DNA of 64,000 nt from a virus. Below are positions 14,778 through 33,183 of the stretch, one piece after another. The position numbers and the translations under genes are program-made. The notes under the pieces are model-generated. The model saw only the letters and a list, made by a program, of their open reading frames with translations. It was not told the DNA's origin and did not search any database. The number at the start of each line of letters is the position of its first letter. Within the stretch, counting starts at the first letter, position 1. Location: the IMG/VR virus record IMGVR_UViG_3300042484_002006; one strand, written 5' to 3'.

Positions 14778-15206
14778 CTATTTTATTCTCTCCATAAGTT
14801 TTGCTGAGACCATATTGGGAGTGCATCGATGAGTTGGTATATCATTAATCGCAAGAAAGACTTCAGTGACACTTTTACATGATGGACACTGCCATACAGA
14901 TCCATTCCTAGTAGACTCAGCTAATTGAGCGGAGTCATGTCTTTTAGGATTTAATGAACTGATAACCTGTGATGCGGTAAGATCTGATTTTGTCTTTGAT
15001 TGTACAGGCATCTTGTGTTCTTCAATTTGAAGAGACTGTTGTTTAGCTACTGGGTTAACCTTAATTTTACGAGGGTTAACTTCTTTAGCAGTAGTTTCCT
15101 GTAATTGCAATTTAACACACTTGGGACAAAAGTGAGGTTTTCTACCACGACTTTTATCACGTTTCCATGTTGCACCACATCCTGTGCAAGTAAGCGATTC
15201 TTTCAT
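14778..15206 (-). CDS. Zn-finger protein
   Basis: CTGC, CPKC, CPSC, HRC. Confidence 0.7.
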   Translation of the reverse strand: MKESLTCTGCGATWKRDKSRGRKPHFCPKCVKLQLQETTAKEVNPRKIKVNPVAKQQSLQIEEHKMPVQSKTKSDLTASQVISSLNPKRHDSAQLAESTRNGSVWQCPSCKSVTEVFLAINDIPTHRCTPNMVSAKLMERIK

Positions 15207-15249
15207 TATATTCCCCTAAGATTGACTAAGAATATTTATATAGTAGATA

Positions 15250-15570
15250 TTAAATAATAATTCGTTGTTTTGATATAACCATAGCTTTTGGAATATTTAT
15301 TAAACAACAATAATAATCATCGCAAGTTAAGGTGGAAGCAATAGTATAATAGTTTTTCTTAGGATTTGGTTCGATTAAATAACCAATAGTTTGACAAATG
15401 TAATCTTCAGTATCCATAGATTGAACATCATGCCATTCATCTACTTCAGAAAAGGCATCTCTCCAAATAATTTTATAGATTTTTTTCTTAGAAGATGTTG
15501 AATCTTTTTTATTCTTTTTTATTGGTACTTTTGGTAAGTTAGAATTAACGCTTTGTTCCACAATCAACAC
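15250..15570 (-). CDS. hypothetical protein
   Basis: IIWRDA...CQTIGYL pattern. Confidence 0.6.
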   Translation of the reverse strand: MLIVEQSVNSNLPKVPIKKNKKDSTSSKKKIYKIIWRDAFSEVDEWHDVQSMDTEDYICQTIGYLIEPNPKKNYYTIASTLTCDDYYCCLINIPKAMVISKQRIII

Positions 15571-15745
15571 ACTCCTAAGTAAAGTTAGAAGACATTATAC
15601 CATAGATATGAGATCTTCGTAACTAATATAGTAAGATTTTCCAAAAATATCTTTAGCTATAGCGTGTATCTGATGGGGGGAAACATCTTGTATATCAAAT
15701 ATTGATACATAAGAATTATAATTATAATTATAGGATCTACTTTTT

Positions 15746-16021
15746 TTATTGTTTTTCTTCGCCAAAAGATATTTCCTTAATAGTCGAAAATTCTTGAGGG
15801 CTTATTATCTTATGGGAATCAAATGTATTGCGAATATTTTTATTAAAGAAGTATCCCATAGAATCTGAAGTAATAAAAGAATTATAGAATTCTTCAGAGA
15901 TGTTGTAGTAAGCCCAAACTGTCAATGATTGAAATTGAACAATTAAAGTATTGTCTTCAGAATCCCAGCCTACCATTTTAATAACTGAGCTGTCTGCGGG
16001 CTTATGGGTTAAAACGGTCAT
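15746..16021 (-). CDS. KTSC-domain protein
   Basis: SSVIKMVGWD..TLIVQF...Y.Y...SDSMGYFFNKNIR. Confidence 0.85.
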   Translation of the reverse strand: MTVLTHKPADSSVIKMVGWDSEDNTLIVQFQSLTVWAYYNISEEFYNSFITSDSMGYFFNKNIRNTFDSHKIISPQEFSTIKEISFGEEKQ

Positions 16022-18653: not shown

Positions 18654-19847
18654 TCAAGACATTAGCACTTGATCTTCAATATTTCGTATATGGCGAAGTA
18701 ATGAATAATGACTAATTGCAGAATCTTCTTGCATAAAAGATGCCAAGGCCTCCAAGTAAGTAAAACCCTTAGGTGGCCAAACTCCAGCAAAGGCATAGAA
18801 GGCATCGTAATCTATAGGAGTTTCAGGAATATGACATTCACATTCACAGTCTTCACTGTTTATGTATTCATCTTGTTCATCATCATACTCACTGCATGAA
18901 TCGCAGCAATCTAGATTTCTGTGCGTTTGACTGCTTTGATCTATGCTTTGTAAATATTCACCAATCAAGTTAGTTCGAGCATTACTGAAGTCTGAATAAA
19001 AACGAGGATTTTGAGAATTTTTTACCCAGTTTATATTACTAATTTCATGAAGATCAATTGATTCCCAAGCTTTAAATAAAGCTGCAACATAACTATCACT
19101 TATGTAATAATTTTCTTTACCTATTTCATGAGTAAAAGGTACGGCAAATTTTTCTAAAATAGTATTCTCTGGTTTATATTGATAAAAAGAATAGTACTTT
19201 GCAACAGTTTCAGTCAAATCTAAATTAGTTCCAGAGTTCCATACCCAATCATAAGCAGACTGAATAACGCCAGCAAAATCTTTAGAATACTTTTCTACAT
19301 CATCCATATCAGAAAAGAATGGACGACACAAATCGCCATTAGAATAGAAATTAGGAATTGGAACCATGAACATTTCTTGATCAGGATGCATCAAAGAGGT
19401 TTTCATAAAATACATGCGGACATCAGTGGTGTAATACTCAATCTGATTTTCATTTTTTATTTCATGATATTTAACAATATATAACTGCCAAGGAAGTGGG
19501 ATGCGATAAATGCTTTCTTCGTCACAATCATAGTCTATGTTATCAACTTGTTTGTAAATAATGGAAACATTTTCATAGCAAGGCGGTTTTTCAAAAACTA
19601 AATATTTTTTAGTAGCATATAGAAGCCCTGGGGGCATGATGCCAGTATCTTTTACGATGTAATTATTCTTTGTAAATGAAGAAACAAAATCGGTTACTGG
19701 AACAACTCGATCAAGTTCTCCAGCAATTTGCTGTAAATCATTGGAATAATTATTGTAAACAAAAGAACTTATATAAGAAGAATCTTGATTGTAATTAACT
19801 TTAACAGAAACATTATTAGCATTTGAAGTTAGTATAGAAATAGCCAT
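18654..19847 (-). CDS. prokaryotic E2 (Prok-E2_D-like) protein with a C-terminal Cys cluster
   Basis: YRIPLPWQLYIV...VPIPNFYSNGDLC; CCDSC...CECEC. Confidence 0.6.
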   Translation of the reverse strand: MAISILTSNANNVSVKVNYNQDSSYISSFVYNNYSNDLQQIAGELDRVVPVTDFVSSFTKNNYIVKDTGIMPPGLLYATKKYLVFEKPPCYENVSIIYKQVDNIDYDCDEESIYRIPLPWQLYIVKYHEIKNENQIEYYTTDVRMYFMKTSLMHPDQEMFMVPIPNFYSNGDLCRPFFSDMDDVEKYSKDFAGVIQSAYDWVWNSGTNLDLTETVAKYYSFYQYKPENTILEKFAVPFTHEIGKENYYISDSYVAALFKAWESIDLHEISNINWVKNSQNPRFYSDFSNARTNLIGEYLQSIDQSSQTHRNLDCCDSCSEYDDEQDEYINSEDCECECHIPETPIDYDAFYAFAGVWPPKGFTYLEALASFMQEDSAISHYSLLRHIRNIEDQVLMS

Positions 19848-21328
19848 TAGACAAGGGACTCCTGAACACTAGAGTTAGAAGAAGTATAGGCAGTCTTTGC
19901 AAAAAGATCATTCTTGAAACTGATATAAGATTCAAAAGATTCATAGGGAGCACCGATTTTACTTTTAAGAAAATCATAATAATCAGTGGTAACAATTTTT
20001 TGAATATCTACAACTGAAAATTTACTGGTGACATAATCAAGTAGATAGATTTTATTTTTTGATGGATTATTCATATAGTGATCTAATACTTCATGAAGAG
20101 ATGAAAGATCGAAATAATGCCTTAATCTAAAAGAACTACTCAAATTTGTAGAATCAATATTATAAACAATGACAGGAAAAGATTCATATAAAAAGAAAGA
20201 TTGATCTAATTTAGAATTTTGTGCGAGAATATCTTGAACAGTTGAAGAAAAGTTTTCGTAAGAAGAAACAGTAGTTATCATAGAGTTTTTCTTTATTATG
20301 TTAACAAGTTCTTCAAAACTATAAGTACACTTATGATAACGAATATTACTAGGAAATTCTGAAATTTCTTTATAAAATTCTAAGGTTTCATCAAGACTAA
20401 ATGTAGATAATTGAGTAAAGAAATAATTAAATACAGAACCGTACGAACGAGTAGATGCCTGGAAGTTAAAATTTTCTAACTGTCTAGTAGTCATCTTAGG
20501 ATATTTTTTTTTCAAAAGAATTTTATCAGGATTAAGAAATTTAGATAAAATAGGATGATCTTCTGAAGGTTGATACTGTTGAAAGAATCTATAAAGATTT
20601 GGAGTTAAATCTAAATTCCATCCACCATTCATAAATTCATTAAAAACAATAGAATAGATATAACGAATATCTTTTTTATCTATGTTTTCAACAGAAAGTT
20701 GACTAAGACTGGAAGCAAAACAAATTCTACCATCCATGTAAGAGTTAGGAAGAAATGAAGGAGAATAAACATCTTCCATGGAAGAAAGAGATTTATGAGA
20801 AAACATAATTTTTACGTCACTCAAATCATGAGGATTCAAAATTGTAAGAGTCCAAGGAATCCAAACTTTATATGGATTCATCTTTTTGCGATTATCAGAA
20901 TACCTATTCTTAGTGATGTACAAATCTACTTCAACTTGAAAAGGAGGACGCTCTATAAAATAATAGCCTTCAGGAGTAATATAGCGAGTAGCTATTGGAA
21001 GTAAAGAGGGATCTACTTTTGGATAAATCATTTGCTTATGAGCATAAACAACATCTTCAGTTTTTCCAGAAAAGATAGAAGAAACATCTACTGTCAATAA
21101 TGTAGGAACTTGTTTAGTATCATACCAATATCCACCAAGAAAATCATTAACAACTTGATCATCAGTAGAAGATTGAGCTAAGGAAAGAGGATAGTTAGGA
21201 TAGTTGTAATAAGAACTTGTTAATGCAGAATGAACTACGGTTGAAGCAGAATCTAAATTAACATTAATAAGATAAGAACTAGTTGCTTCCCTAGGATCAA
21301 TGTTAGTAAATTTTCCAGATAAAGACAT
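19847..21328 (-). CDS. prokaryotic E2 (Prok-E2_D-like) protein
   Basis: YKVWIPWTLTIL...LPNSYMDGRICF. Confidence 0.6.
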   Translation of the reverse strand: MSLSGKFTNIDPREATSSYLINVNLDSASTVVHSALTSSYYNYPNYPLSLAQSSTDDQVVNDFLGGYWYDTKQVPTLLTVDVSSIFSGKTEDVVYAHKQMIYPKVDPSLLPIATRYITPEGYYFIERPPFQVEVDLYITKNRYSDNRKKMNPYKVWIPWTLTILNPHDLSDVKIMFSHKSLSSMEDVYSPSFLPNSYMDGRICFASSLSQLSVENIDKKDIRYIYSIVFNEFMNGGWNLDLTPNLYRFFQQYQPSEDHPILSKFLNPDKILLKKKYPKMTTRQLENFNFQASTRSYGSVFNYFFTQLSTFSLDETLEFYKEISEFPSNIRYHKCTYSFEELVNIIKKNSMITTVSSYENFSSTVQDILAQNSKLDQSFFLYESFPVIVYNIDSTNLSSSFRLRHYFDLSSLHEVLDHYMNNPSKNKIYLLDYVTSKFSVVDIQKIVTTDYYDFLKSKIGAPYESFESYISFKNDLFAKTAYTSSNSSVQESLV

Positions 21329-23662: not shown

Positions 23663-24309
23663 TGTTCATACCAGTCTTGATTGTTGGTAACATATGATAC
23701 CATAGAAAGATCCATTAAGTATGAGATAGAGCAAATATCTTGACGACTAACTTTAATCTGGTCAACAGACAGAGGAGTCTTCATATCAGGAATAAATGCA
23801 CCACTGTCGGACTTACGCGCAGCAAAATGTCCACACTTCCAAACAAATGAAGTAGTATCTACTGAATCAGATGTTTGCCAGTAATGAGCTTTAAAGATTC
23901 GAGAAATAGGCTTGCCATCAAGAGTTGTTCCACCGTATGAAACAAAACCTTCATTAGTAGGAACGCCCATTCTTTCATTAGCGGGATAGTTTATAGAAGC
24001 TGTTTGATTCGCTATTGAACGAAGATAGGCAGCAAAGTCAATAGTATCAACAAAGACTGCAGTACTGCTTTGAAGTTTACCTTCAGAAGAAGTCTTACCA
24101 ATATCAATCTTCATTTTAAGTGCTTCATTCCAAGGACGAATAGCTAAGAAGCCACTCTGTGTCTTTGATCTAAACCACTTTTTATAAAGATCTTGCTGGT
24201 AGTCTTTAGTATCAGTTTTAACTGGATCCTTTATTCCTTCCAAAGAAGAAAGAAATTCTTCTGCATTATCAAATGTATCGCTCATAATATTCCTATCTAT
24301 TATTGCCAA
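23659..24309 (-). CDS. hypothetical protein
   Basis: 216 aa; overlaps the end of the AAA gene. Confidence 0.75.
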   Translation of the reverse strand: MAIIDRNIMSDTFDNAEEFLSSLEGIKDPVKTDTKDYQQDLYKKWFRSKTQSGFLAIRPWNEALKMKIDIGKTSSEGKLQSSTAVFVDTIDFAAYLRSIANQTASINYPANERMGVPTNEGFVSYGGTTLDGKPISRIFKAHYWQTSDSVDTTSFVWKCGHFAARKSDSGAFIPDMKTPLSVDQIKVSRQDICSISYLMDLSMVSYVTNNQDWYEQ

Positions 24310-25913
24310 ATAAGTTTGGACTCTGATTTTACAGGAGACTTTTTACCTAGTATCATTTTAGCATCTTCCATCTGAGATGTCGAGGCCCAATCCCACTGCT
24401 CAAGAGCATACTGATACATGGACATAACCATGTCATTGTGCTTGAGCCAAATGGTATTCTTGGTACGAGGAATGAAATGTAGAATATCTTTAGTTTCAAT
24501 TGGTCTGAAAGATTCAGAAGTTACATAAAACTTTGTTTCACGAATCAAAGAAACAATTTCTGCACCAGTCATATATACAGCAGCGTCAGCTAATGCATCA
24601 TAATTATAATTGTGGTCAGTATCAATCTTGCTCAAATGAATATGAAAGATATGCTTGCGTTCTTCAAATGAAGGAAGGCCAACAAACATAATTTTGTCGA
24701 AACGATCTGCGCGCAACATCTCAGGGCGCAAAGCTTCAAGTTGATTAGCTGCACATAGTAAGAATGTTTCTTCAGGAAGCTCTTGAAGACCAGTAAGGAA
24801 TTCACCATGAACACGATCAGTGGTTCCGCCATCTACATGAGAAGAACTTGATCCACCAGAAAGATCACGACCAAACTCGTCAATCCACACACATAGTGGA
24901 GACATGAGTTTGATTTGCTTAAAGACAGCACGCATGTTAGCTTCTGATTGACCAATAAAGGAATTCATAACTTGGCTAATACCAGTGCGAGCCAAGTCTA
25001 GTCCAAGTTCATTGGCAGTGGCTTGACAGATAGCTGACTTACCAGTGCCAGGAATTCCGACCATAAGCATTCTGCGAATAGGAGTAATGCCGAAAGACTT
25101 TGCGCGTTCTGGATCATTCCACAAAACTGCTGTTCTACGAATAATGTCTTTGATATTATCAAGACCACCAATATCTGCAAAGCTCATTGTAGGCTTAATA
25201 ATTTCAAGAATGCCATTCTTTTTAATAGTTGACATTTTTTGATCATAAACAAACTTAGGATTAAGTTGTCCAGTATTAACAACGGATGTCAAACAAAGAT
25301 CAATGAATTGAGATTCAGTAAGACCGATTCCAGCATTAACAAGTTCTTTAATGTTGTCTTGTTCAATGAGACGGTCATGTGCAGAAGCATTGATATGCGT
25401 AGCAATAGAATGAAGTTCAGAAAGACCAGGAATAAGATCTTCTATAACAGTAAAGTACTGAGCATATTCTTCAGATACAGCTTGTGAACTCAAGAAAATT
25501 AATTGAAGAGGCATTAAAGAAAGATCATCATTCCAGAAAGCTTTACGATATGATGATTTAAAGTGGGCAATGTATGGAGACATCGGCATGATTGCCGCGT
25601 TAAGATCGCCAATAACATTAATGAAATAAGTAGCTGGCTTAGTAAACGTGGGAGCATTTTCCAAAAGATAGGACATAGCAATCGATGGATCATAAGTGAC
25701 CACTAATTCAGGTCCACCAGTCATTTCAGCCAAAGGATTTGGAACTAGTACGCTCTTCCATTGGCCTTCGCAGTACTTAGAAAATCCAGATAGAAAATCA
25801 ATAATATAATAATCTCTATCAATTGTAGAAGTAATAACATCTACAATTCTGGAAGAGTCAGAATCTTTAATCCAAATATTTGGATAGTTGAGTTTAATAG
25901 AATCAAATAACAT
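24300..25913 (-). CDS. AAA+ ATPase (Ycf46/SpoVK/Cdc48-like)
   Basis: GIPGTGKS, VWIDE, AANQ, RADRFD; degenerate N-terminal module; start set at ATG 25913. Confidence 0.9.
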   Translation of the reverse strand: MLFDSIKLNYPNIWIKDSDSSRIVDVITSTIDRDYYIIDFLSGFSKYCEGQWKSVLVPNPLAEMTGGPELVVTYDPSIAMSYLLENAPTFTKPATYFINVIGDLNAAIMPMSPYIAHFKSSYRKAFWNDDLSLMPLQLIFLSSQAVSEEYAQYFTVIEDLIPGLSELHSIATHINASAHDRLIEQDNIKELVNAGIGLTESQFIDLCLTSVVNTGQLNPKFVYDQKMSTIKKNGILEIIKPTMSFADIGGLDNIKDIIRRTAVLWNDPERAKSFGITPIRRMLMVGIPGTGKSAICQATANELGLDLARTGISQVMNSFIGQSEANMRAVFKQIKLMSPLCVWIDEFGRDLSGGSSSSHVDGGTTDRVHGEFLTGLQELPEETFLLCAANQLEALRPEMLRADRFDKIMFVGLPSFEERKHIFHIHLSKIDTDHNYNYDALADAAVYMTGAEIVSLIRETKFYVTSESFRPIETKDILHFIPRTKNTIWLKHNDMVMSMYQYALEQWDWASTSQMEDAKMILGKKSPVKSESKLIWQ

Positions 25914-25955
25914 ATATATCACCAAACGTACTAGGTGTTGCCTTTTCAAAAAATA

Positions 25956-26007
25956 GGGGGAGGATCGATACATTTATCTAATGAAGAATGTACTCAGATC
26001 CTCCCCC
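25956..26007 (-). terminator. intrinsic terminator-like hairpin after the Ubl gene
   Basis: GGGGGAGGATC...GATCCTCCCCC followed by a T-rich run on the - strand. Confidence 0.65.
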
Positions 26008-26020
26008 GTAGGTGTGCTAA

Positions 26021-26275
26021 TCAGCCCTTTTCGCCTGCACGGCGGTGGAACTCAATGTTCTGGCCGGGCTGAATAACAGCGTTCTCATCAAGTTTGTCCT
26101 TGCCACAGTAGGCAATAGCATCATTGGGAATGCCCCAGATCTTAGCGAACTGTTGACGAACTTCATTGATGGACTTTCCAGCAATGTTGCTCGGCTGATT
26201 GTAAACTCCATAGCGGAGATTAGCCATTCCATTAGCGCGATTCGGCTGAGCTGCCGATGAACTTGTATTTTCCAT
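26021..26275 (-). CDS. ubiquitin-like modifier (Prok-Ub/PRTRC protein C-like)
   Basis: 84 aa ending IEFHRRAGEKG; directly after E1. Confidence 0.8.
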   Translation of the reverse strand: MENTSSSAAQPNRANGMANLRYGVYNQPSNIAGKSINEVRQQFAKIWGIPNDAIAYCGKDKLDENAVIQPGQNIEFHRRAGEKG

Positions 26276-26289
26276 TTTAATTTCTCCTA

Positions 26290-27048
26290 TTATACTGTAA
26301 TTGGTTCTTCTACAGAAGAATGCATTCTGTTGTATGGTTCAGATTTACCGAGTCCAAGATCAAAGAAAATTTCTGTTTCTTCAGGGCTTTGATTGGACAC
26401 TATTGTTTTTTGGACACGACCAAGAATAAAGGACGCTACTGCCATATTAGTGGCGAGTAGTTGAGTGCCTCCTTCAATCTGGGCGCGATCTTGACAAGAC
26501 AATTCACCAGGATTCTTATCTGGCGGATTGTTGTATTCTGGATGATATTCAGCGGGATGAGCAGTAATTTCTACGCCATCTCGTTTTTGATAATGATAAA
26601 TAGAACCAAAAAGGTCATCATCATTACCTCCAGTAAAAACATCAACATTATTTAATTTAGAAGCGGCATCGAAGATAATTTTTCTAGCAGCAAAGTTATC
26701 AACAACTGCAAAAACAACGTCACCTTCACGAATGAGTTGAGAAGCAGTTATCTTAGGACTTTCATCATCGGTAACGCCAGCAAAGTTATCATCAACAACC
26801 CACTTAGCTAATGGAATAATTGTAGTATTAGGGAACTGAGGAACAAGTTCAGCAGCTTTAACTACAGCTTTATTTCCAAGCTTAGTGAAATCTTGACGTT
26901 CTTTATTCTTTTCCTCAAAGGTATCACCATCAACAATGATGAGAGCGGATCCTGGGAATTTCCATTCAAGAAGTCTGACAAGACCTGCTGCAAGCCAAGT
27001 GCCAATGCCACCTGCTCCAACTAAAATAAAACGTCTTTCAGTGCTCAT
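26290..27048 (-). CDS. ThiF/E1-like activating enzyme
   Basis: GAGGIG, DGDTFEEKNKERQ, GNKA, VDNFAAR, ELSC. Confidence 0.92.
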   Translation of the reverse strand: MSTERRFILVGAGGIGTWLAAGLVRLLEWKFPGSALIIVDGDTFEEKNKERQDFTKLGNKAVVKAAELVPQFPNTTIIPLAKWVVDDNFAGVTDDESPKITASQLIREGDVVFAVVDNFAARKIIFDAASKLNNVDVFTGGNDDDLFGSIYHYQKRDGVEITAHPAEYHPEYNNPPDKNPGELSCQDRAQIEGGTQLLATNMAVASFILGRVQKTIVSNQSPEETEIFFDLGLGKSEPYNRMHSSVEEPITV

Positions 27049-28709
27049 TATGCCTCCAAGGGGTTATATATATTTGCACTATAGGGCAGATAGCTATTGC
27101 ATTCTTGAATAGAAATTGCTTCTTCAAATGAATAAATATCTGTAGACCTATTAGTTACAAATTTTTCTATAAGTTTTATATATTCTGGACAGTGTGTATC
27201 ATAAAAGAATTCACAATTAGCACATCCGGTAGACAAATCATAAACTTGAATTGTTTTGGTTTCTTCTTCAAAATCTACAAAATCAGATGTAAGAATCTGC
27301 ACTTTGCAATAGCAAAGTTGTTCGGCATCGCGCAGTGTTCTTCCGCAGCATACAGTAAAGATGTCATCATCAACTGTAGATTGTACAGTATCTTCTAAAA
27401 TTGTATAAGAATCATCTAGATAAGGATCTGTAAAAATGGAGTTGAGAAGAGTTGTAGGAGTTAAACGAATAATGAAATCTAAATCGTTAGCATCTCTACA
27501 CCACAAGTAAGCGGGAACCTTTTTATCAATACCATTTCTGGTGCAGTAGTAGGCAAGATTGTCGATAAGAGTTGCTACGTTTGTGTTCTTTTCAGCAATG
27601 GGTACGTCACAAACACAGCAGCTACCGTCAAAAATATCATACTCGTCAAGAGATGTTTGGCAAGATGGGCATGTAAAGAGTTTGTTTTTTTCATCATCTA
27701 ATTCTGCTACAATGATGGCATTGTCTTCAAGATTGAATTCTGGAATACATCTAAAAGATAATGCTTGCTTCTTTCTGTGATCAGTTATACCAGCCTGCGT
27801 ACCCGCCTGATGGGTTCCATTTACTGGAGTGAGTGATCCCCCCACCGTACTGGGGGGGAGTGCTTTTTTTACTTTACCGGTCCAAGCTACAACTTCTGGA
27901 TCTGGTGCTTTTTCGACAACATAATCTTCAAAGACATCCTCGATATCAAGTTTATATGCTTGTCCTGACATCTGCATTTCAGCATAGTATTGAGTCGCTC
28001 CATTTTGAACAGACTTCTGCCAGCCAAATGTAATGTGAATACCATCGAAATCAGCTTGATCTTTATGGTCTGTTCCAGAAGCATAGGCGCTCATTCCAGG
28101 ATGGCTGTGAACAGAGCCAACAATCATAACATTATCGGGCTTAACTTCGGCAATGCTATTGGGATCATAGTTACAATGGACTGAAGTATTAGTTTGATCT
28201 GGAACAAGAATGCCCCAACCTTCAGATCCTTCTTTTTCAAGATCATAGGTAAGCATGACAATAGATTCAGATCCATGTTGTGCATCGACAAGTCTAAAGA
28301 ACTGATCGAGTTTATCAACAAGAACGTGAGGAATGGGTGGCATATTATAAGTAGCTTCTTCTTGCACCGCAATAAACTGAGGATCAAATGATTCGGTAGA
28401 AAAAGTGACAGTACGGCCAATAAAGTTATTGACAACTTTGAATAACTGCATGTTAGATGTCGTTACTGTAACTGATGGAGCAGGAGTAGGGGGCTTATAG
28501 CCATTGTAGCCTGCACCAGTCGCATTGGATGGTGGAGTAGTTTTTGTTGTTTTTTCGATATTACCAAGAAGATAATAAATATTAAAACCAAAATATTCTA
28601 CAACTTCACAGATATCTTCACGATTAGCCATGAATACTGGAAGACCATTGGACATCCAGTAATAATCTAAATCGTCAAGAGTAAGTTCTTGTTCAATTTC
28701 TTCAGACAT
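27048..28709 (-). CDS. JAB/MPN metalloprotease with a C-terminal Cys-rich region
   Basis: E...GSVHSHPGMSAYASGTD; CPSC, CCVC. Confidence 0.9.
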   Translation of the reverse strand: MSEEIEQELTLDDLDYYWMSNGLPVFMANREDICEVVEYFGFNIYYLLGNIEKTTKTTPPSNATGAGYNGYKPPTPAPSVTVTTSNMQLFKVVNNFIGRTVTFSTESFDPQFIAVQEEATYNMPPIPHVLVDKLDQFFRLVDAQHGSESIVMLTYDLEKEGSEGWGILVPDQTNTSVHCNYDPNSIAEVKPDNVMIVGSVHSHPGMSAYASGTDHKDQADFDGIHITFGWQKSVQNGATQYYAEMQMSGQAYKLDIEDVFEDYVVEKAPDPEVVAWTGKVKKALPPSTVGGSLTPVNGTHQAGTQAGITDHRKKQALSFRCIPEFNLEDNAIIVAELDDEKNKLFTCPSCQTSLDEYDIFDGSCCVCDVPIAEKNTNVATLIDNLAYYCTRNGIDKKVPAYLWCRDANDLDFIIRLTPTTLLNSIFTDPYLDDSYTILEDTVQSTVDDDIFTVCCGRTLRDAEQLCYCKVQILTSDFVDFEEETKTIQVYDLSTGCANCEFFYDTHCPEYIKLIEKFVTNRSTDIYSFEEAISIQECNSYLPYSANIYNPLEA

Positions 28710-28717
28710 ATATTCTC

Positions 28718-30697
28718 CTAAAATATTTCAGCTTTCTGAATGTGCAATCCAGAAATGGTTTCGAAGCTTTGATTGTTATCATGTAGTTTTTGGAAAAGAT
28801 CTGCAACATTAGGTTTAATTTGGTTATAATAATACCCAGCATCCTGAGAATATTGTGACCAACAAGTTGAGCATAACTTATCAACAGATACGTCATAGAT
28901 AAAAACTTCGTTATTGTCATCCCAATCAATTCCAGTTGGATTTGTAACTAATGTTGGATGAGCATTAATGATGTCTGCAGTTGTACTTTTTGCAGTGAAT
29001 AAAAATGAAGGATGAGAAATTTTGAGAGAATCTAAATCAAGAAATGTGCTATTTTCAACACCACAAATACATAAATGAATAGATTCTTCAACAGTCTGTT
29101 CAGAATGGTTCCACTCAATTTTATTAGTTAAATCAATATTGAGAGGTACATCCATAAGCTTCATTCTTAAAGCGCATGTAGTGCAAAGAGGGCGCTGTAA
29201 TCCTTCTCCGTCGGTGCGATAATAAACAGAGAAAATTGAAGTAGCCAAATTGGGAACATTTGTATCACAGTTTGAGCACTTGCATGAATTATAAGGTATA
29301 CCTTCAGATACATAAATGTATTGATCGATACATTCAGTGCATCGATCTGGAGCAAAAGAACTATTAGAATGCCAAATGTTTAGATTTTCTTTATTGAATG
29401 CCATACCTGGATCGTAGATATGTAGATGATCACAGGTGGGGCAACTGATATGGTAAGGCCATTCAGGCAGATAATAATGACGAGCAAGAGTTTCATCGTA
29501 GTATAACTCTTCATGATCATCATCTATGTAATTTTTAATATGAGAAACATACGTATATGAATTAGAAACACATGTCGTACAAATTAATTCACCATTATAA
29601 ACTTCAATAACGTCACCTGGAGGATACCAAGATTCACATTGTTGGCACATATGAGTTTCTTCATCATCGTCTTCATCCTCTTCTTCATCTTCATCTTGAT
29701 TAGGAACGAATACAGCAGCTGCTTGAGACAAAGCTTCACGAACAGTTGTACTTGAATTGAAAGTATCAATAGTTGTATTATTTTCAGATGACGCATTATA
29801 TGATTGTTTAAACCATCTAAAAACAGAAGTAGGATCTAAAGTAAGATCATCTCTGGAGATAGCATTAATAGGCTTTGGAATAAGTGAATCTGTATAGTAT
29901 GCTTGGTAATTACCAAACAAGGCGTCAACGAAAGTAAGTGCTTGGCCACCAGCGTAATGCTGATCCTGATGATCAATGTCTTGGACTAAGATAGGAATCC
30001 ATACTTCAGGATCAAGAGTCCATTCATATCCATTCTTATCTGAATAATCTTCCCAATCTTGTGGATTAGTGAGATGCGCGGGCTTATTATTGTCACGATA
30101 AAAACGAGGACCATCGGTCTCACTCATATTGTTGTCATTGTAAGCTTCAGTTCCTGAACAACGATCAAGAATTTTAGCGAGCTTTTCATTGAATGGATAC
30201 TGAGAAATGTCTTCTGTATGATATAAACAAATCCAACCTACAGCATTTCCCCGATAGCCCTTGCAGTTAATGTTGGGAACATTAATATGATATAAAGGAG
30301 CTTGAGGATAGGTAATGGGAATAGGAGAATAGAATGTTCTAGCTCCTAGAATATTATCATTGAGAAGGTCAGCAATAACTATTCTATAAGGCTGAGCAAC
30401 ATAGTACTTCTTTGCTTCAGCATCTCTTTCATATCTACCCCAGTTAATGTAGTACATGCCAGGCTTATGCTGATAAGCAATCTGAGTATGATTACCAGCT
30501 GATCTAATGGCCAAAAGACCAGAACCATCTACTGGTAGTAAGCCGGTATCAAGATAAGCATTGGATGAAAACTTCGTATAGAAAGAAGTAAGATCTTTAT
30601 CAGTAACATGATCCAGGCCAAATGAATTAACAGTTGATCTAAATACTATATTTCCATTGCTATCTTGATCAGTAAAAGAATAGTTAACATTACTCAT
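28718..30697 (-). CDS. Prok-E2_D-like protein fused to multiple Zn fingers
   Basis: APLYHINVPNIN...GWICL; CQQC, CTTC, CPTC, CSNC, CTTC, CSTC. Confidence 0.7.
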   Translation of the reverse strand: MSNVNYSFTDQDSNGNIVFRSTVNSFGLDHVTDKDLTSFYTKFSSNAYLDTGLLPVDGSGLLAIRSAGNHTQIAYQHKPGMYYINWGRYERDAEAKKYYVAQPYRIVIADLLNDNILGARTFYSPIPITYPQAPLYHINVPNINCKGYRGNAVGWICLYHTEDISQYPFNEKLAKILDRCSGTEAYNDNNMSETDGPRFYRDNNKPAHLTNPQDWEDYSDKNGYEWTLDPEVWIPILVQDIDHQDQHYAGGQALTFVDALFGNYQAYYTDSLIPKPINAISRDDLTLDPTSVFRWFKQSYNASSENNTTIDTFNSSTTVREALSQAAAVFVPNQDEDEEEDEDDDEETHMCQQCESWYPPGDVIEVYNGELICTTCVSNSYTYVSHIKNYIDDDHEELYYDETLARHYYLPEWPYHISCPTCDHLHIYDPGMAFNKENLNIWHSNSSFAPDRCTECIDQYIYVSEGIPYNSCKCSNCDTNVPNLATSIFSVYYRTDGEGLQRPLCTTCALRMKLMDVPLNIDLTNKIEWNHSEQTVEESIHLCICGVENSTFLDLDSLKISHPSFLFTAKSTTADIINAHPTLVTNPTGIDWDDNNEVFIYDVSVDKLCSTCWSQYSQDAGYYYNQIKPNVADLFQKLHDNNQSFETISGLHIQKAEIF

Positions 30698-30718: not shown

Positions 30719-31108
30719 TTAATCTGTAGTATTAAAAAGTTGTTCAATATCTTGGTCGATTTCTTGTGTGAAATCCCCAAAAGTCCAAGCAAACCAGTTT
30801 GGATCTTTTTGAACAGCTTCAATAACGGAAAGTTTAGATTGAGCTTCTTCATATACTTCGATAAGATCTGCCAATCGATCCATAGCTTTAGCTAGTTTTT
30901 TAAGATCAGATTTTTTAGGTTGAAGCATAAGTATATTTTTTAAGACTGGAAAACCATTAACATAAAATTTTTCAGAATCAGTAATATTAGAGATTCTTTC
31001 TTCAAGAGTAGAATATTCAGATTGAATATCGACCTTAGCTTTATTTGCAAGAGCAAATGAGAAATTAAAATTATTCATTTTTGAAGATGAATTTTCATGA
31101 TTAGTCAT
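30719..31108 (-). CDS. hypothetical protein
   Basis: co-oriented ORF. Confidence 0.65.
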   Translation of the reverse strand: MTNHENSSSKMNNFNFSFALANKAKVDIQSEYSTLEERISNITDSEKFYVNGFPVLKNILMLQPKKSDLKKLAKAMDRLADLIEVYEEAQSKLSVIEAVQKDPNWFAWTFGDFTQEIDQDIEQLFNTTD

Positions 31109-31503: not shown

Positions 31504-31956
31504 TTAGATACATGAGTAAGTACTCCTCTTGGCTTTTCGGTATTTGGCACCATCGGATCCAAAATAATTTAGAACTGTTTCTGTAAATAACAAAAACAAT
31601 AACGGTGCGTAGGGCATAAAGTTAAAGATACCATTAAGTAAGATTAAGAATAATGTAGTAAGAAACCCAACAAATGGACCGTAGAAGGCAACATTCTTTT
31701 GGGCACGTGGTGCTAGCTTGGATATCCTAGTTAAACCTATAACAAAAAATGGTAAAGGTATAAATATAGGAAGCTTTGGTTTAGCGTTGTGTTTTTTAGC
31801 TACAAAATAATGACCTAATTCGTGAGCTAAAAGAACCATTAAAAATATAAATACTATAGAACTATGTATAATAGAATAGTTAACTGCAGCAACTGCTGCT
31901 AAACTAAAGATTGTATAAAATGATTGTGGAATCTTTTTAAAGAATTTATTTTTCAT
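31504..31956 (-). CDS. M50/site-2 protease-like membrane protein
   Basis: HELGH in a TM segment; VAFYGP. Confidence 0.7.
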   Translation of the reverse strand: MKNKFFKKIPQSFYTIFSLAAVAAVNYSIIHSSIVFIFLMVLLAHELGHYFVAKKHNAKPKLPIFIPLPFFVIGLTRISKLAPRAQKNVAFYGPFVGFLTTLFLILLNGIFNFMPYAPLLFLLFTETVLNYFGSDGAKYRKAKRSTYSCI

Positions 31957-32704
31957 TTGTTTTTCTATATACAACAGGAGTAGAAAACTCTTTGGCAAGT
32001 AGATCAGCTAAACTAGAGTTTGCTAACATGTTGTTAATGTTAGAAGTAATGTCTCTCATGAAATCTGAATAATAAATATCATGATCATCTTCATCTTGTA
32101 AGTCTGATGGATTAGCAAATAAAAATTCTCTAACAGGAAGATCTAATTTTTCTGCAAGTATTCTATAAGTTGCACGATCTAAAATAAGAGCGTGATTACA
32201 AATAGACATAGATGATGTAAAACAAGAGCGGACATAAAGATCATTAAAGTCTAAATTCAGAATGTCAATCAACGCTTTGCTGAATGTATCTGATATTTCA
32301 CCTTCAGCAAATATGTCATTGAACAAAGAAAGAAAAGTCATTCTTCTAGAGATGCGCATTTCTGTCTTGTAAAAAAGATTTAATAAAGAATAGTTTCCTT
32401 CAGTAACAGAGTCTAATGCTACGATCATGGACTTCATAGCAGCTTGGGGGATTACATCCTGCAAGAAATTATTAGTAGCTTCATGGAAACCTATAGCTAA
32501 TTTAACTTTACCGCCATCAAGAGAACCATTTGTAGAATCTTTAAAGTGAGACTGAATGTCTTTAAGTAAACGATATTCACGAGTGGAATAATCATTTGCA
32601 TTTAGAATATCATCAGAGTCATTTGAGGCGTAGGGAGTTTTAGTTTCTTGATCTGGATCATAATCAAATAGATCATTATCATTATCAGAAATATGACTAG
32701 ACAT
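31946..32704 (-). CDS. hypothetical protein
   Basis: 252-aa ORF. Confidence 0.75.
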   Translation of the reverse strand: MSSHISDNDNDLFDYDPDQETKTPYASNDSDDILNANDYSTREYRLLKDIQSHFKDSTNGSLDGGKVKLAIGFHEATNNFLQDVIPQAAMKSMIVALDSVTEGNYSLLNLFYKTEMRISRRMTFLSLFNDIFAEGEISDTFSKALIDILNLDFNDLYVRSCFTSSMSICNHALILDRATYRILAEKLDLPVREFLFANPSDLQDEDDHDIYYSDFMRDITSNINNMLANSSLADLLAKEFSTPVVYRKTNEK

Positions 32705-32706
32705 AA

Positions 32707-33183
32707 TTATATATCCTTATCGTTAGAAGAATCTGACTGTGTCTTTGATGATTCTTCTGTAGGTTCATAAATAATTTTAGAGTTATTTCTTTTGACATAA
32801 ATTTTAGTGGGAGCAATACCTCTACGACATAAATCATCAACAAAGATTTTAGTTTGTTCTCGAGTTAAAGATTCTAAATTATTGTGAAGTACATGTCTCA
32901 CATAACTCTGGCGCTGTTTAGCTGTACTACGAGCCCAGATGCCATCGTATTCTCGGAGCAGGGCTTCGTGCATGCAATCTACGATAACAGGACATCTTTC
33001 GCATAAAGAATAAATTCTTGTTGTTTCATCTATATTTGCTTTAGTGATAGCAATTGGAAAAAATGAATCTATTGATTCCCCTTTGCACGCTGCTTTTTCT
33101 CGCCATTGAGTATTAATAGGAATATTATTTTCTTCAGTCATTCGAAGGGATCCTTTAGGTTTAGGATATCTTGTAGTAGCCAC
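32707..33183 (-). CDS. whiB: WhiB-family transcription factor
   Basis: WREKAACKG, FFP, CERCPVIVDC, GIWA. Confidence 0.85.
   Translation of the reverse strand: MATTRYPKPKGSLRMTEENNIPINTQWREKAACKGESIDSFFPIAITKANIDETTRIYSLCERCPVIVDCMHEALLREYDGIWARSTAKQRQSYVRHVLHNNLESLTREQTKIFVDDLCRRGIAPTKIYVKRNNSKIIYEPTEESSKTQSDSSNDKDI

Follow-up and report, generated by a model that had tools for sequence, protein, structure and literature searches.

Does a bacteriophage encode a pathway of its own for tagging proteins with a ubiquitin-like protein (Ubl)? The question is raised by a locus of an uncultured ~200-kb lake phage with a large, lytic-type genome, of which a stretch of 64,000 nucleotides was analysed (the window). 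A first-pass annotation had described four consecutive coupled genes for an E2-like protein with a Cys-rich extension (E2-Zn), a JAB protease, a ThiF-type E1 and a Ubl. All four ORFs are present on the minus strand at the following positions:

30697-26021, minus strand: E2-Zn, JAB, E1 and Ubl genes, four tightly coupled ORFs
28718..30697, minus strand: E2-Zn, 659 aa; N-domain (residues 1-330), acidic linker (~333-346), C-terminal zinc-ribbon array (predicted)
27048..28709, minus strand: JAMM/JAB metalloprotease, 553 aa; conserved N-terminal domain, Cys-rich C-terminal half
26290..27048, minus strand: ThiF/MoeB-type E1, 252 aa; adenylation domain only (ThiF, PF00899)
26021..26275, minus strand: Ubl, 84 aa; disordered N-terminal 17 residues, beta-grasp core (predicted), tail RRAGEKG

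The stop codon TAG of the E2-Zn gene lies inside the Shine-Dalgarno sequence TAGGAG, which is followed by an 8-nt gap to the JAB gene. JAB and E1 overlap by stop and start codon (TAATG) with GGAGG upstream, and a 14-nt gap with AGGAG separates E1 and Ubl. The coupling of the four genes therefore stands, but they are not the self-contained operon that had been proposed: the gap-free gene string adds a small upstream gene, an AAA+ ATPase and two further E2-like genes. Predicted sites in a promoter and terminator scan of 17.5-35.5 kb were no more numerous than in shuffled sequence and, therefore, the scan does not give the operon boundaries. The additional members are:

30719..31108, minus strand: small protein, 129 aa, directly upstream of the E2-Zn gene; possible fifth component
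24300..25973, minus strand: Cdc48/PAN-type AAA+ ATPase, directly downstream of Ubl (NCBIfam CDC48 E 4.9e-33, Pfam AAA E 6e-23)
19847-21328, minus strand: E2b, E2-like paralog in the same gene string
18654-19847, minus strand: E2c, E2-like paralog in the same gene string

In nearly all related loci that extend far enough upstream, the small gene is found next to the E2-Zn gene and in the same direction, and its product is still recognisable in a distant locus (L071; BLASTP E 3e-4). It had no family match in an NCBIfam scan. A fifth cassette component of this kind is possible; operons of type 6d in bacteria include a "rapidly diverging alpha-helical protein" (PMC1779556). The AAA+ ATPase has the Walker A motif GIPGTGKS, the pore loop SFIG and the Walker B motif WIDEF. 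It is syntenic in all examined loci but two (L045 and L047) and is also present in distant contigs. In some relatives, a gene for an HslV/proteasome-beta-type peptidase lies on the same strand, a few kb further downstream; a search for a proteasome/HslV-like gene in the window found none, and ClpP was not found in four relatives. The surrounding genes are replication and early genes (SSB, UDG, WhiB, helicase), and general family scans gave no ParB match among about 20 neighbouring ORFs.

About 30 phage contigs share the gene order of the cassette, which is found again in distant relatives with a Ubl of only ~30% identity. The order small gene, E2-Zn, JAB, E1, Ubl, AAA+ was seen in 41/41 loci from ~25 distinct IMG/VR contigs, in four of five MAG contigs (the fifth, L047, matched JAB and E1 only) and in three distant ENA/Logan contigs. 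The IMG/VR contigs that carry the loci measure 170-270 kb, and CheckV rates four of them as 92-100% complete, which bears out the claim that the cassette is phage-borne. The catalytic residues of the cassette proteins are all invariant among the aligned relatives, and order and invariance together are far beyond chance. The kit family comprises ~190 sequence clusters at 50% identity. Megablast found no counterpart of the 4.7-kb region among the INPHARED phages, and none of the four cassette proteins matched a PHROG. Among related loci, identity is highest for E1 (70-91%), followed by Ubl (57-85%), E2-Zn (42-69%), JAB (37-49%) and E2b/E2c (27-41%). These rates would fit a conserved activation core combined with fast-evolving specificity parts.

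The assignment of the E1 is straightforward.

26494-26496, minus strand: codon of E1 Cys185, the sole cysteine of the protein, invariant

The protein matches ThiF (PF00899) with E 1.3e-11 and 44.6 bits, above the cut-off of 28.1, and the nucleotide loop, the RQ and the ELSC cysteine noticed at first reading are all there: GAGGIG (11-16), ERQ (50-52), DNFAAR (117-122) and ELSC with Cys185. GAGGIGTW, ERQ, VVDNFAAR and GE(L/M)SCQ are invariant in 22 E1 variants; they cover the Rossmann GxGxxG loop, the Arg finger (RQ) and the Asp of DN...R expected of the superfamily. A PDB search with the E1 profile gave nothing usable and one with the single sequence only weak Uba4 matches. By tblastn, one unannotated match (27.6%) was found in phages; the three matches in plasmids are solitary ThiF genes whose neighbours are not annotated as E2 or JAB.

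The Ubl ends as had been described, with the stop directly after Gly84.

26024-26026, minus strand: Ubl Gly84 codon GGC, TGA stop directly after

A beta-grasp fold, the lack of which would have counted against a Ubl, is predicted. The AF2 model (pLDDT 77.4) has the order beta-beta-alpha-beta-beta-beta, and its best Foldseek matches in the PDB are ubiquitin, SUMO, NEDD8 and Caldiarchaeum Ub (probability 1.00, TM about 0.6). The modelled protein thus has the features of a modifier, a beta-grasp fold with a flexible tail ending in Gly; no Ubl model of NCBIfam was matched. Among 20 variants the tail EFHRR(A/S)GEKG hardly changes, the proteins of distant relatives end in GEKG, GDKG or GQKG, and the C-terminal Gly is kept from 100% down to ~30% identity. 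In 4/24 variants two extra residues follow the conserved Gly. The earlier remark that JAB need not mature the Ubl is correct for the present phage; given these extended variants, however, the family's JAB probably retains a maturation role. Type II Bil Ubls have the same C-terminal Gly pattern and are pre-processed by their DUB (PMC10557695).

The JAB protein has the complete E...HxHx7Sx2D motif, made up of Glu148 and HSHPGMSAYASGTD at residues 201-214.

28068..28268, minus strand: JAMM active site; Glu148 (28266-28268) and His201-x-His203-x7-Ser211-x2-Asp214 (28068-28109)

The JAMM/MPN+ zinc site is therefore intact, as the first reading had it, and its residues are invariant in 16 aligned homologues. 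The match to Prok-JAB (PF14464; E 4.9e-5, 23.6 bits) is slightly below the cut-off of 25, and the best PDB sequence matches are all weak and all JAMM deubiquitinases (Caldiarchaeum Rpn11-like, AMSH, Rpn11). Distant relatives have an extra gene between JAB and E1. That this gene is a split-off Cys-rich half of JAB was considered and rejected, the BLASTP matches being not significant (E 0.19-1.0).

The E2 identity of the 659-aa protein is the weak link of the cassette.

29708..30697, minus strand: E2-like N-domain; predicted catalytic Cys157 (30227-30229) and Asn142 of the PN motif (30272-30274)
28862..29647, minus strand: Cys-rich region of E2-Zn; seven CxxC and two CxC, about four predicted C4 zinc ribbons

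The candidate catalytic Cys157 sits in LPNINCKGYRGNAVGWICLYH. The domain has an invariant Cys downstream of an (H)PN-type Asn, as in E2/UBC proteins: Asn142 and Cys157 are kept in 149/149 family representatives in a loop PN...GW(I/V)C, with a spacing of 15 residues that is longer than in Prok-E2_D. E2-Zn itself had no Pfam, PHROG, NCBIfam or PADLOC match, a Pfam scan found no Prok-E2 in 37 diverse family members, and neither Prok-E2_D (PF14460) nor PRTRC_B (TIGR03737) was matched by the protein or those 37. At E <= 1e-3 the family forms a closed set of 218 representative clusters. PDB sequence searches with E2-domain profiles gave no usable match. An AF2 model of the N-domain (pLDDT 73.5) has the topology alpha / beta-meander / loop / helices with low pLDDT in the catalytic loop, and fold searches with it gave no clear E2 match.

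A connection to Prok-E2_D is made by the paralogs. In hhalign comparisons the N-domain matches E2c with 97.0% (E 9.6e-11), E2c and E2b match each other with 98.6% in a profile-profile comparison, and E2b matches 10 bona fide Prok-E2_D/PRTRC_B proteins with 91.1% (E 1.1e-6), the Cys being aligned. Against a merged profile of E2c, E2b and Prok-E2_D, the N-domain reaches 97.2% (E 3.4e-11) in an alignment that places Cys157, behind an insertion of 7 residues, in the column of the catalytic Cys. The control set of 10 Bacteroidota Prok-E2_D proteins scored 108-134 bits, and all three that were scanned with NCBIfam were PRTRC_B. PF14460 is weakly matched by 3/15 E2c homologues (best E 0.014); a homologue search with the E2c profile provided no bridge, since only close, unannotated relatives were returned. 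The ESM-Atlas clusters nearest the E2-like domain are viral and carry PF14460 on 13-15% of their members. From these comparisons E2b and E2c appear to bridge the N-domain to Prok-E2_D, to which the 659-aa protein is related only transitively, by remote homology. The GWICL cysteine of the first-pass annotation thus holds, its Prok-E2_D label does so only in this remote sense, and its six or so CxxC pairs have become seven CxxC and two CxC. The C-terminal half has 17 Cys between residues 351 and 612, for which Pfam gave weak zinc-ribbon-type matches only. Since this half varies, close relatives differ in total length (359 to 679 aa); in 111 long representatives of the family, the median number of CxxC in the C-terminal part is 6 (range 0-15). 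The array is a candidate target-recognition module.

We put the probability that the cassette is a phage-encoded Ubl conjugation module, distantly related to the PRTRC or "6d" cassettes of bacterial mobile elements, at roughly 60%. This reading builds on the gene identities, that of the E2 by remote homology only, on the invariant catalytic residues, the predicted beta-grasp fold and the conserved linkage. By the chemistry of its family, the minimal E1 would bind ATP and adenylate the exposed Gly84 of the Ubl; the acyl group would then pass to Cys185 of the E1 and on to Cys157 of the E2-like N-domain. The variable zinc-ribbon array may pick the target and, therefore, the proposed mechanism would need no separate E3, as has been proposed for Bil E2s. 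The JAMM protease could trim extended Ubl precursors, where present, and also reverse conjugates, and the Cdc48-like AAA+ ATPase and the two E2-like paralogs probably either work on the tagged proteins or widen their range. The location of the cassette among replication and early genes makes host or early phage proteins likelier targets than virion parts. It is tempting to speculate that this family of large freshwater phages runs a self-contained "tag and extract" pathway of eukaryotic style that marks host proteins, such as defence or housekeeping factors, for unfolding or destruction during takeover, with one E1, one Ubl, three E2-like enzymes whose target-recognition modules evolve fast, a JAMM deconjugase, a Cdc48-like unfoldase and, in some relatives, an HslV-type peptidase; at present we regard this as a tentative idea that is rather doubtful.

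The weak E2 assignment leaves room for a cassette without an E2, in which the E1 attaches the Ubl directly, JAB reverses the reaction and the 659-aa protein serves as an adaptor with zinc ribbons, as a substrate or as some other enzyme. The model would be archaeal SAMP/UbaA or Thermus TtuB/TtuC, and E2-independent sampylation is established in archaea. The 659-aa protein indeed has no direct family or fold match to an E2, and its N-domain aligned directly to Prok-E2_D by hhalign at 2% (E 0.025), which is not significant. However, all family representatives keep Cys157 and Asn142 (100%), in a loop PN...G-x-(I/V)-C that resembles that of Prok-E2_D, the profile chain to Prok-E2_D reaches 97% and 91%, and the gene string has three E2-like paralogs for only one E1 and one Ubl. 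We therefore consider direct attachment by the E1 unlikely.

Ubl-based systems directed against phages are known from hosts (PMC10097602; PMC10557695; PMC11601596), the specificity parts of the cassette evolve fast and the cassette lies in the early region. This would also suit a cassette whose main job is to disarm host immunity (Bil, CBASS Cap2/Cap3, Bub), with JAB cleaving the host's conjugates, a possibility raised at first reading, or Ubl, E1 and E2 competing with or mis-tagging host defence proteins, and such a role is compatible with a conjugation module. On the other hand, JAB and Ubl had no PADLOC match at E <= 0.1, and only the N-terminus of the E1 matched Cap2 "E1-E2" models, weakly (best E 1.9e-5). 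The cassette proteins are most closely related to those of PRTRC and not to Bil or Cap proteins, and a deconjugase alone would need less than the full set of E1, E2 and Ubl. Counter-defence is thus an improbable main function. Synthesis of a thiocarboxylate for tRNA thiolation or a cofactor by the E1 and a ThiS/MoaD-like protein, with JAB as CysO/Mec-type processing peptidase, would agree with ThiF/MoeB families among the NCBIfam matches of the E1, ThiS on 21-44% of the members of the ESM-Atlas clusters nearest the Ubl, seven phage tRNAs in the window, including Lys(UUU), and known sulfur operons of JAB, ThiS/MoaD and E1 (PMC1779556), but is very improbable given that the E1 has neither a rhodanese domain nor a CxxC zinc site, that four related phage genomes of 92-100% completeness have no rhodanese and no TtuA/NcsA/TilS-type ATP_bind_3, that the Foldseek top 50 of the Ubl are ubiquitin, SUMO and NEDD8 and not ThiS or MoaD, and that E2-like paralogs and an AAA+ ATPase play no part in sulfur transfer.

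In a literature search that included a survey of 224 jumbo-phage genomes (PMC7824862), we came across no account of a phage cassette of this type; what comes nearest is an Asgard archaeal virus for which E1-like genes, and no other parts of the kit, have been reported. As far as this search goes, comparable kits have so far been described in bacteria and their mobile elements, some of them anti-phage, and not in phages. That bacteria use Ubl conjugation against phages (CBASS Cap2/3, Bil, Bub) has come to light recently, and how this chemistry is linked to eukaryotic ubiquitin in evolution is under active study. If the conjugation module is real, a family-wide phage kit of E1, E2-like protein, JAB and Ubl would place the same chemistry on the side of the virus. 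The PRTRC/6d class, for which we found no biochemical characterisation in the literature (Prok-E2_D/PRTRC), would gain a tractable model with small proteins and clear-cut predictions (Gly84, Cys185, Cys157, JAMM site), and the three paralogous E2s would be a natural set for studying E3-independent target choice. "Tag and extract", if true, would be a phage counterpart of eukaryotic viruses that exploit the ubiquitin-proteasome system.

Compared with known systems, the cassette resembles the Ub-E1-E2-(RING)-Rpn11 operons of Caldiarchaeum and Asgard type (PMC3082918, PMC5654768) in its compact set of Ubl, E1, E2 and JAMM Rpn11-like protein, and the best PDB matches of the Ubl model and the JAB sequence include chains of Caldiarchaeum Ub and its Rpn11-like protein. 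Unlike the phage proteins, the archaeal ones are close in sequence to those of eukaryotes; a RING finger was not identified in the phage set. Type II CBASS (PMC10097602) shares the E1/E2 thioester chemistry with a JAB antagonist. Its Cap2 is a fused E1-E2, whereas E1 and E2-like protein of the phage are separate, and the phage JAB is without a PADLOC match; CBASS has no Ubl, since the C-terminus of the CD-NTase is conjugated. BilABCD (Type I / Type II, "CEHH/6C"; PMC10557695, Hor et al. 2024), a bacterial anti-phage ubiquitination system, shares with the cassette a stand-alone set of Ubl, E2, JAB DUB and E1, no E3, and a single conserved Ubl Gly that is sometimes followed by a few residues removed by the DUB (PMC10557695). 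However, the E1 of that system, BilD, is large and eukaryote-like, with a CYS domain in addition to an inactive and an active adenylation domain (PMC10557695), whereas the phage E1 is an adenylation domain of 252 aa; PADLOC gave no Bil-type match in the phage cassette, only the weak Cap2-type E1 matches. Bil is host-encoded and anti-phage, and the present cassette is phage-encoded.

The closest relatives are PRTRC-type proteins, in line with the resemblance noted at first reading. PRTRC (ParB-related, ThiF-related cassette) is operon type 6d of Iyer, Burroughs and Aravind 2006 (PMC1779556) and consists of PRTRC_A (JAB), PRTRC_B (Prok-E2_D, PF14460), PRTRC_C (Ubl) and PRTRC ThiF. By its scores the phage cassette reaches no curated PRTRC cut-off: the best NCBIfam match of the E1 is PRTRC_ThiF (TIGR03736) with only 29.3 bits versus 144.75 (E 4.9e-7), and that of JAB is PRTRC_A (TIGR03735) with only 18.9 versus 101.8 bits (E 8.8e-4). 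The phage E2 has a 7-residue loop insertion and is without the F-S-H motif that follows the Cys in Prok-E2_D, and long zinc-ribbon extensions are predicted for E2 and JAB. The phage string differs further in gene order, in its three E2 paralogs and Cdc48-like AAA+ ATPase, and in its location in a lytic-type large phage genome instead of an ICE or plasmid. Nevertheless, both cassettes are carried by mobile DNA and combine a minimal single-domain E1 and an E2-like protein with the loop PN/FN...G-x-V/I-C with a small fast-evolving protein. In both, a Ubl with C-terminal Gly is encoded beside JAB, E1 and E2, and the E2 paralogs of the phage link to PRTRC_B.

The four genes of the cassette are arranged head to tail, all on the minus strand:

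30697-28718, minus strand, E2-Zn gene, 659 aa (E2-like N-domain, residues 1-330, and a zinc-ribbon C-terminal half)
28709-27048, minus strand, JAB gene, 553 aa
27048-26290, minus strand, E1 gene, 252 aa
26275-26021, minus strand, Ubl gene, 84 aa

The E2-Zn stop codon sits within the Shine-Dalgarno sequence of the JAB gene (TAGGAG), the JAB stop overlaps the E1 start in TAATG, E1 and Ubl are separated by 14 nt, and the Ubl frame closes GGC-TGA, so that Gly84 is the final residue. Judged from the sequence, these junctions are of the translationally coupled type. The first-pass annotation had spoken of a coupled operon. The coupling holds, but a delimited operon is not apparent: in a consensus scan of the region around the cassette, promoter- and terminator-like sites were no more numerous than in shuffled sequence, and the genes are therefore regarded as part of a longer co-directional string.

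E2-Zn and 37 diverse relatives have no match in Pfam, PHROGs, NCBIfam, PADLOC or the PDB sequences. The N-domain forms a closed family; a search covering 1.84 billion representatives gave 218 clusters at E <= 1e-3, 185 of these at E <= 1e-30. Asn142 and Cys157 are kept in 149/149 family representatives. The AlphaFold model of residues 1-330 (pLDDT 73.5) runs from a helix through a beta-meander and a long loop of low confidence, which carries the cysteine (LPNIN...GWIC), to further helices; in the model, this order of elements is that of the UBC fold. Two E2-like paralogs are encoded further down the string:

19847-21328, minus strand, E2b
18654-19847, minus strand, E2c

By profile comparison (hhalign) the N-domain is homologous to both, with 97.0% for E2c (E 9.6e-11) and 78.8% for E2b (E 1.6e-5); E2b and E2c align at 98.6%. 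The comparison set was ten bona fide Prok-E2_D proteins taken from genomes of Bacteroidota; they score 108-134 bits against PF14460, and all three that were scanned with NCBIfam match PRTRC_B. Alignment with these ten gave 91.1% (E 1.1e-6) for E2b, whose Cys falls in register, 39.5% for E2c and, by direct comparison, 2% for the E2-Zn domain. Against a merged profile of E2c, E2b and Prok-E2_D, the E2-Zn domain reached 97.2% (E 3.4e-11); here Cys157, preceded by a 7-residue insertion, occupies the column of the catalytic Cys. Weak contact to PF14460 is seen in 3/15 E2c homologues, and the nearest ESM-Atlas clusters of the E2-Zn domain are viral, and 13-15% of their members carry PF14460. The conservation of Asn142 and Cys157, the chain of alignments via the paralogs, the merged profile and the traces of PF14460 together argue that E2-Zn probably belongs to the Prok-E2_D-like clade, from whose other members it has diverged strongly. 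It is possible that the Ubl system works independently of an E2, since the E2 fold of the 659-aa protein is a predicted one.

Past an acidic linker, the C-terminal half of E2-Zn has seven CxxC and two CxC motifs, equivalent to about four C4 ribbons. The number of CxxC motifs ranges from 0 to 15 across the family and total length from 359 to 679 aa in close relatives; a Pfam scan that included 37 diverse family members recognised neither a RING nor another named finger. Most close relatives (loci L002-L037) end in [D/E]-x-P-F and the window protein in EIF (28718-28735); the PF ending is found in only 12 of 150 representatives of the broader family. This C-terminal end could be a docking tail.

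The Ubl does not match any family model in Pfam, PHROGs or NCBIfam. Its AlphaFold model, built on a 16-sequence alignment, has a pLDDT of 77 and the order beta-beta-alpha-beta-beta-beta. A Foldseek search against PDB returned ubiquitin variants, SUMO1, NEDD8, ISG15 and Caldiarchaeum ubiquitin with a probability of 1.00 and a TM of ~0.6; given these matches, the beta-grasp fold on which the first-pass assignment depended is present in the model. The tail EFHRR(A/S)GEKG is nearly invariant (20 variants; S for A in one). The protein ends at the Gly in 16 variants, carries two extra residues in three (SL, SL, NI) and has SK after the conserved Gly in one distant MAG copy; copies at ~30% identity, or un-alignable by BLAST, have a terminal GEKG, GDKG or GQKG and then the stop. 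This agrees with the pattern reported for Type II Bil Ubls, in which a DUB removes the zero to nine residues that come after a universally conserved Gly (PMC10557695).

The E1 scores 44.6 bits against ThiF (PF00899), and its top NCBIfam model is PRTRC_ThiF, with 29 bits where the cut-off is 145. No other gene of the cassette evolves as slowly (70-91% identity for E1), and the motifs GAGGIGTW, ERQ, VVDNFAAR and GE(L/M)SCQ are invariant among the variants. Cys185 is its sole cysteine and a CxxC zinc site is absent; the residue lies in what we take to be the counterpart of the crossover region where Cys184 is found in E. coli ThiF and the catalytic Cys in UBA5. A role in sulfur transfer is kept alive by the ThiS annotation on 21-44% of members in some ESM-Atlas neighbour clusters of the Ubl, although such an annotation is to be expected where a beta-grasp modifier is prokaryotic. 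This reading is disfavoured: the E1 lacks a rhodanese domain, and neither a rhodanese nor a TtuA/NcsA-type enzyme is encoded in four related near-complete genomes.

The JAB protein has weak PDB sequence matches, all of them to JAMM deubiquitinases (Caldiarchaeum Rpn11-like, AMSH and Rpn11). It scores 23.6 bits against Prok-JAB, slightly below the cut-off, and E 8.8e-4 against PRTRC_A. No residue of the zinc site is missing and none varies (Glu148 and His201-x-His203-x7-Ser211-x2-Asp214); the JAB domain covers about residues 100-290, the 60-residue N-domain is conserved, and the Cys-rich C-terminal half is variable. A role in counter-defence, although compatible with conjugation, has no direct support; the PADLOC models recognise neither the JAB protein nor the Ubl. 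In two distant cassettes the JAB protein is shorter (419-508 aa) and an extra gene for 240-293 aa lies between JAB and E1:

L070, 6932-7813, extra gene
L071, 7407-8129, extra gene

The extra gene begins CxxC...CxxC, resembling the Cys-rich half of the window JAB, and this suggests a split or fusion; in BLASTP the match to that half is not significant (E 0.19-1.0).

The element that carries the cassette is a phage: the window has seven tRNAs and phage-type replication genes. Searches with E1 and the 659-aa protein gave 41 loci, spread over ~25 distinct IMG/VR contigs that reach 268 kb in length, among them IMGVR_UViG_3300027733_000030 (196,540 bp; 96-100% identity to the window), and four related phage genomes are rated 92-100% complete. 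In every locus the order small gene / E2-Zn / JAB / E1 / Ubl / AAA+ / three small genes / ... / E2b / E2c is kept. Distant ENA and Logan contigs found by profile search have small gene / E2-Zn / JAB / one extra gene / ThiF / 77-82-aa gene / one gene / AAA. Four of the five MAG contigs found share the cassette; the fifth, from Uhrbacteria, matched JAB and E1 only:

L047, 3295-8699, 1013-aa ORF, then JAB-like protein (26% identity) and ThiF E1 (33%; E 6e-10 against PRTRC_ThiF)

This arrangement is much more distant than the other loci and may represent a branch of its own within this kind of cassette.

Directly downstream of the cassette is a classical-clade AAA+ ATPase (CDC48 E 4.9e-33, PAN-type models 1.3e-30) with Walker A, pore loop SFIG and Walker B. 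Its listed ATG (25973) is ~30 nt from the sole strong Shine-Dalgarno sequence (GGGGGAGG; window 25913-26020), and homologues (528-543 aa) lack the first 20 residues; the true start may be Met21, near 25913. A conserved 129-aa protein is encoded directly upstream of the cassette, and SSB, a UDG-family protein, WhiB, a helicase and RNA polymerases further along. The neighbourhood is early/replication and not a virion module. It includes:

32707-33183, minus strand, WhiB-family gene (PF02467, E 1.5e-11), 2 kb upstream of the cassette
31504-31998, minus strand, 164-aa ORF that matches Peptidase_M50 below threshold (E 3e-5, 23.9 bits, cut-off 27.2)

The 164-aa ORF is three genes upstream of E2-Zn and kept in most related loci. 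Since WhiB genes are typical of Actinomycetota phages, the WhiB gene hints at a host of this phylum. One cassette-bearing MAG contig was binned as Iamiaceae, but others to unrelated phyla.

Two related complete phages of 216 and 268 kb (G306, G307) encode proteasome-beta/HslV-like proteins of 202-205 aa that open MTTI... (PF00227, 29.6-31.7 bits, cut-off 22.4):

L059, 3977-4588
L060, 9443-10060
L061, 2097-2705

Each phage has a copy 3.4-9 kb beyond E2c on the same strand as the cassette. Homologues of the window ORFs 15746-16021 and 14778-15206 flank this copy in the 216-kb phage; in the phage of 268 kb it is further downstream, and that genome has a second copy elsewhere. The window has no homologue, and the equivalent slot (15207-15745) is taken by a 106-aa ORF.

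In the literature, including a survey of 224 jumbo-phage genomes (PMC7824862), we found no description of a bacteriophage with a full set for Ubl conjugation; the closest published case is an Asgard virus that has only E1-like genes. Among known systems, the PRTRC/6d cassette of plasmids and ICEs comes nearest; it was predicted in 2006 (PMC1779556), and we found no biochemical or functional characterisation of it in the literature. The 6d operons include a small fast-diverging helical protein (PMC1779556), to be compared with the conserved upstream 129-aa protein of the phage cassette. The phage version falls below every curated PRTRC cut-off and is set apart by the loop insertion in the E2, the zinc-ribbon extensions, three E2 paralogs, the AAA+ partner and its residence in a phage.
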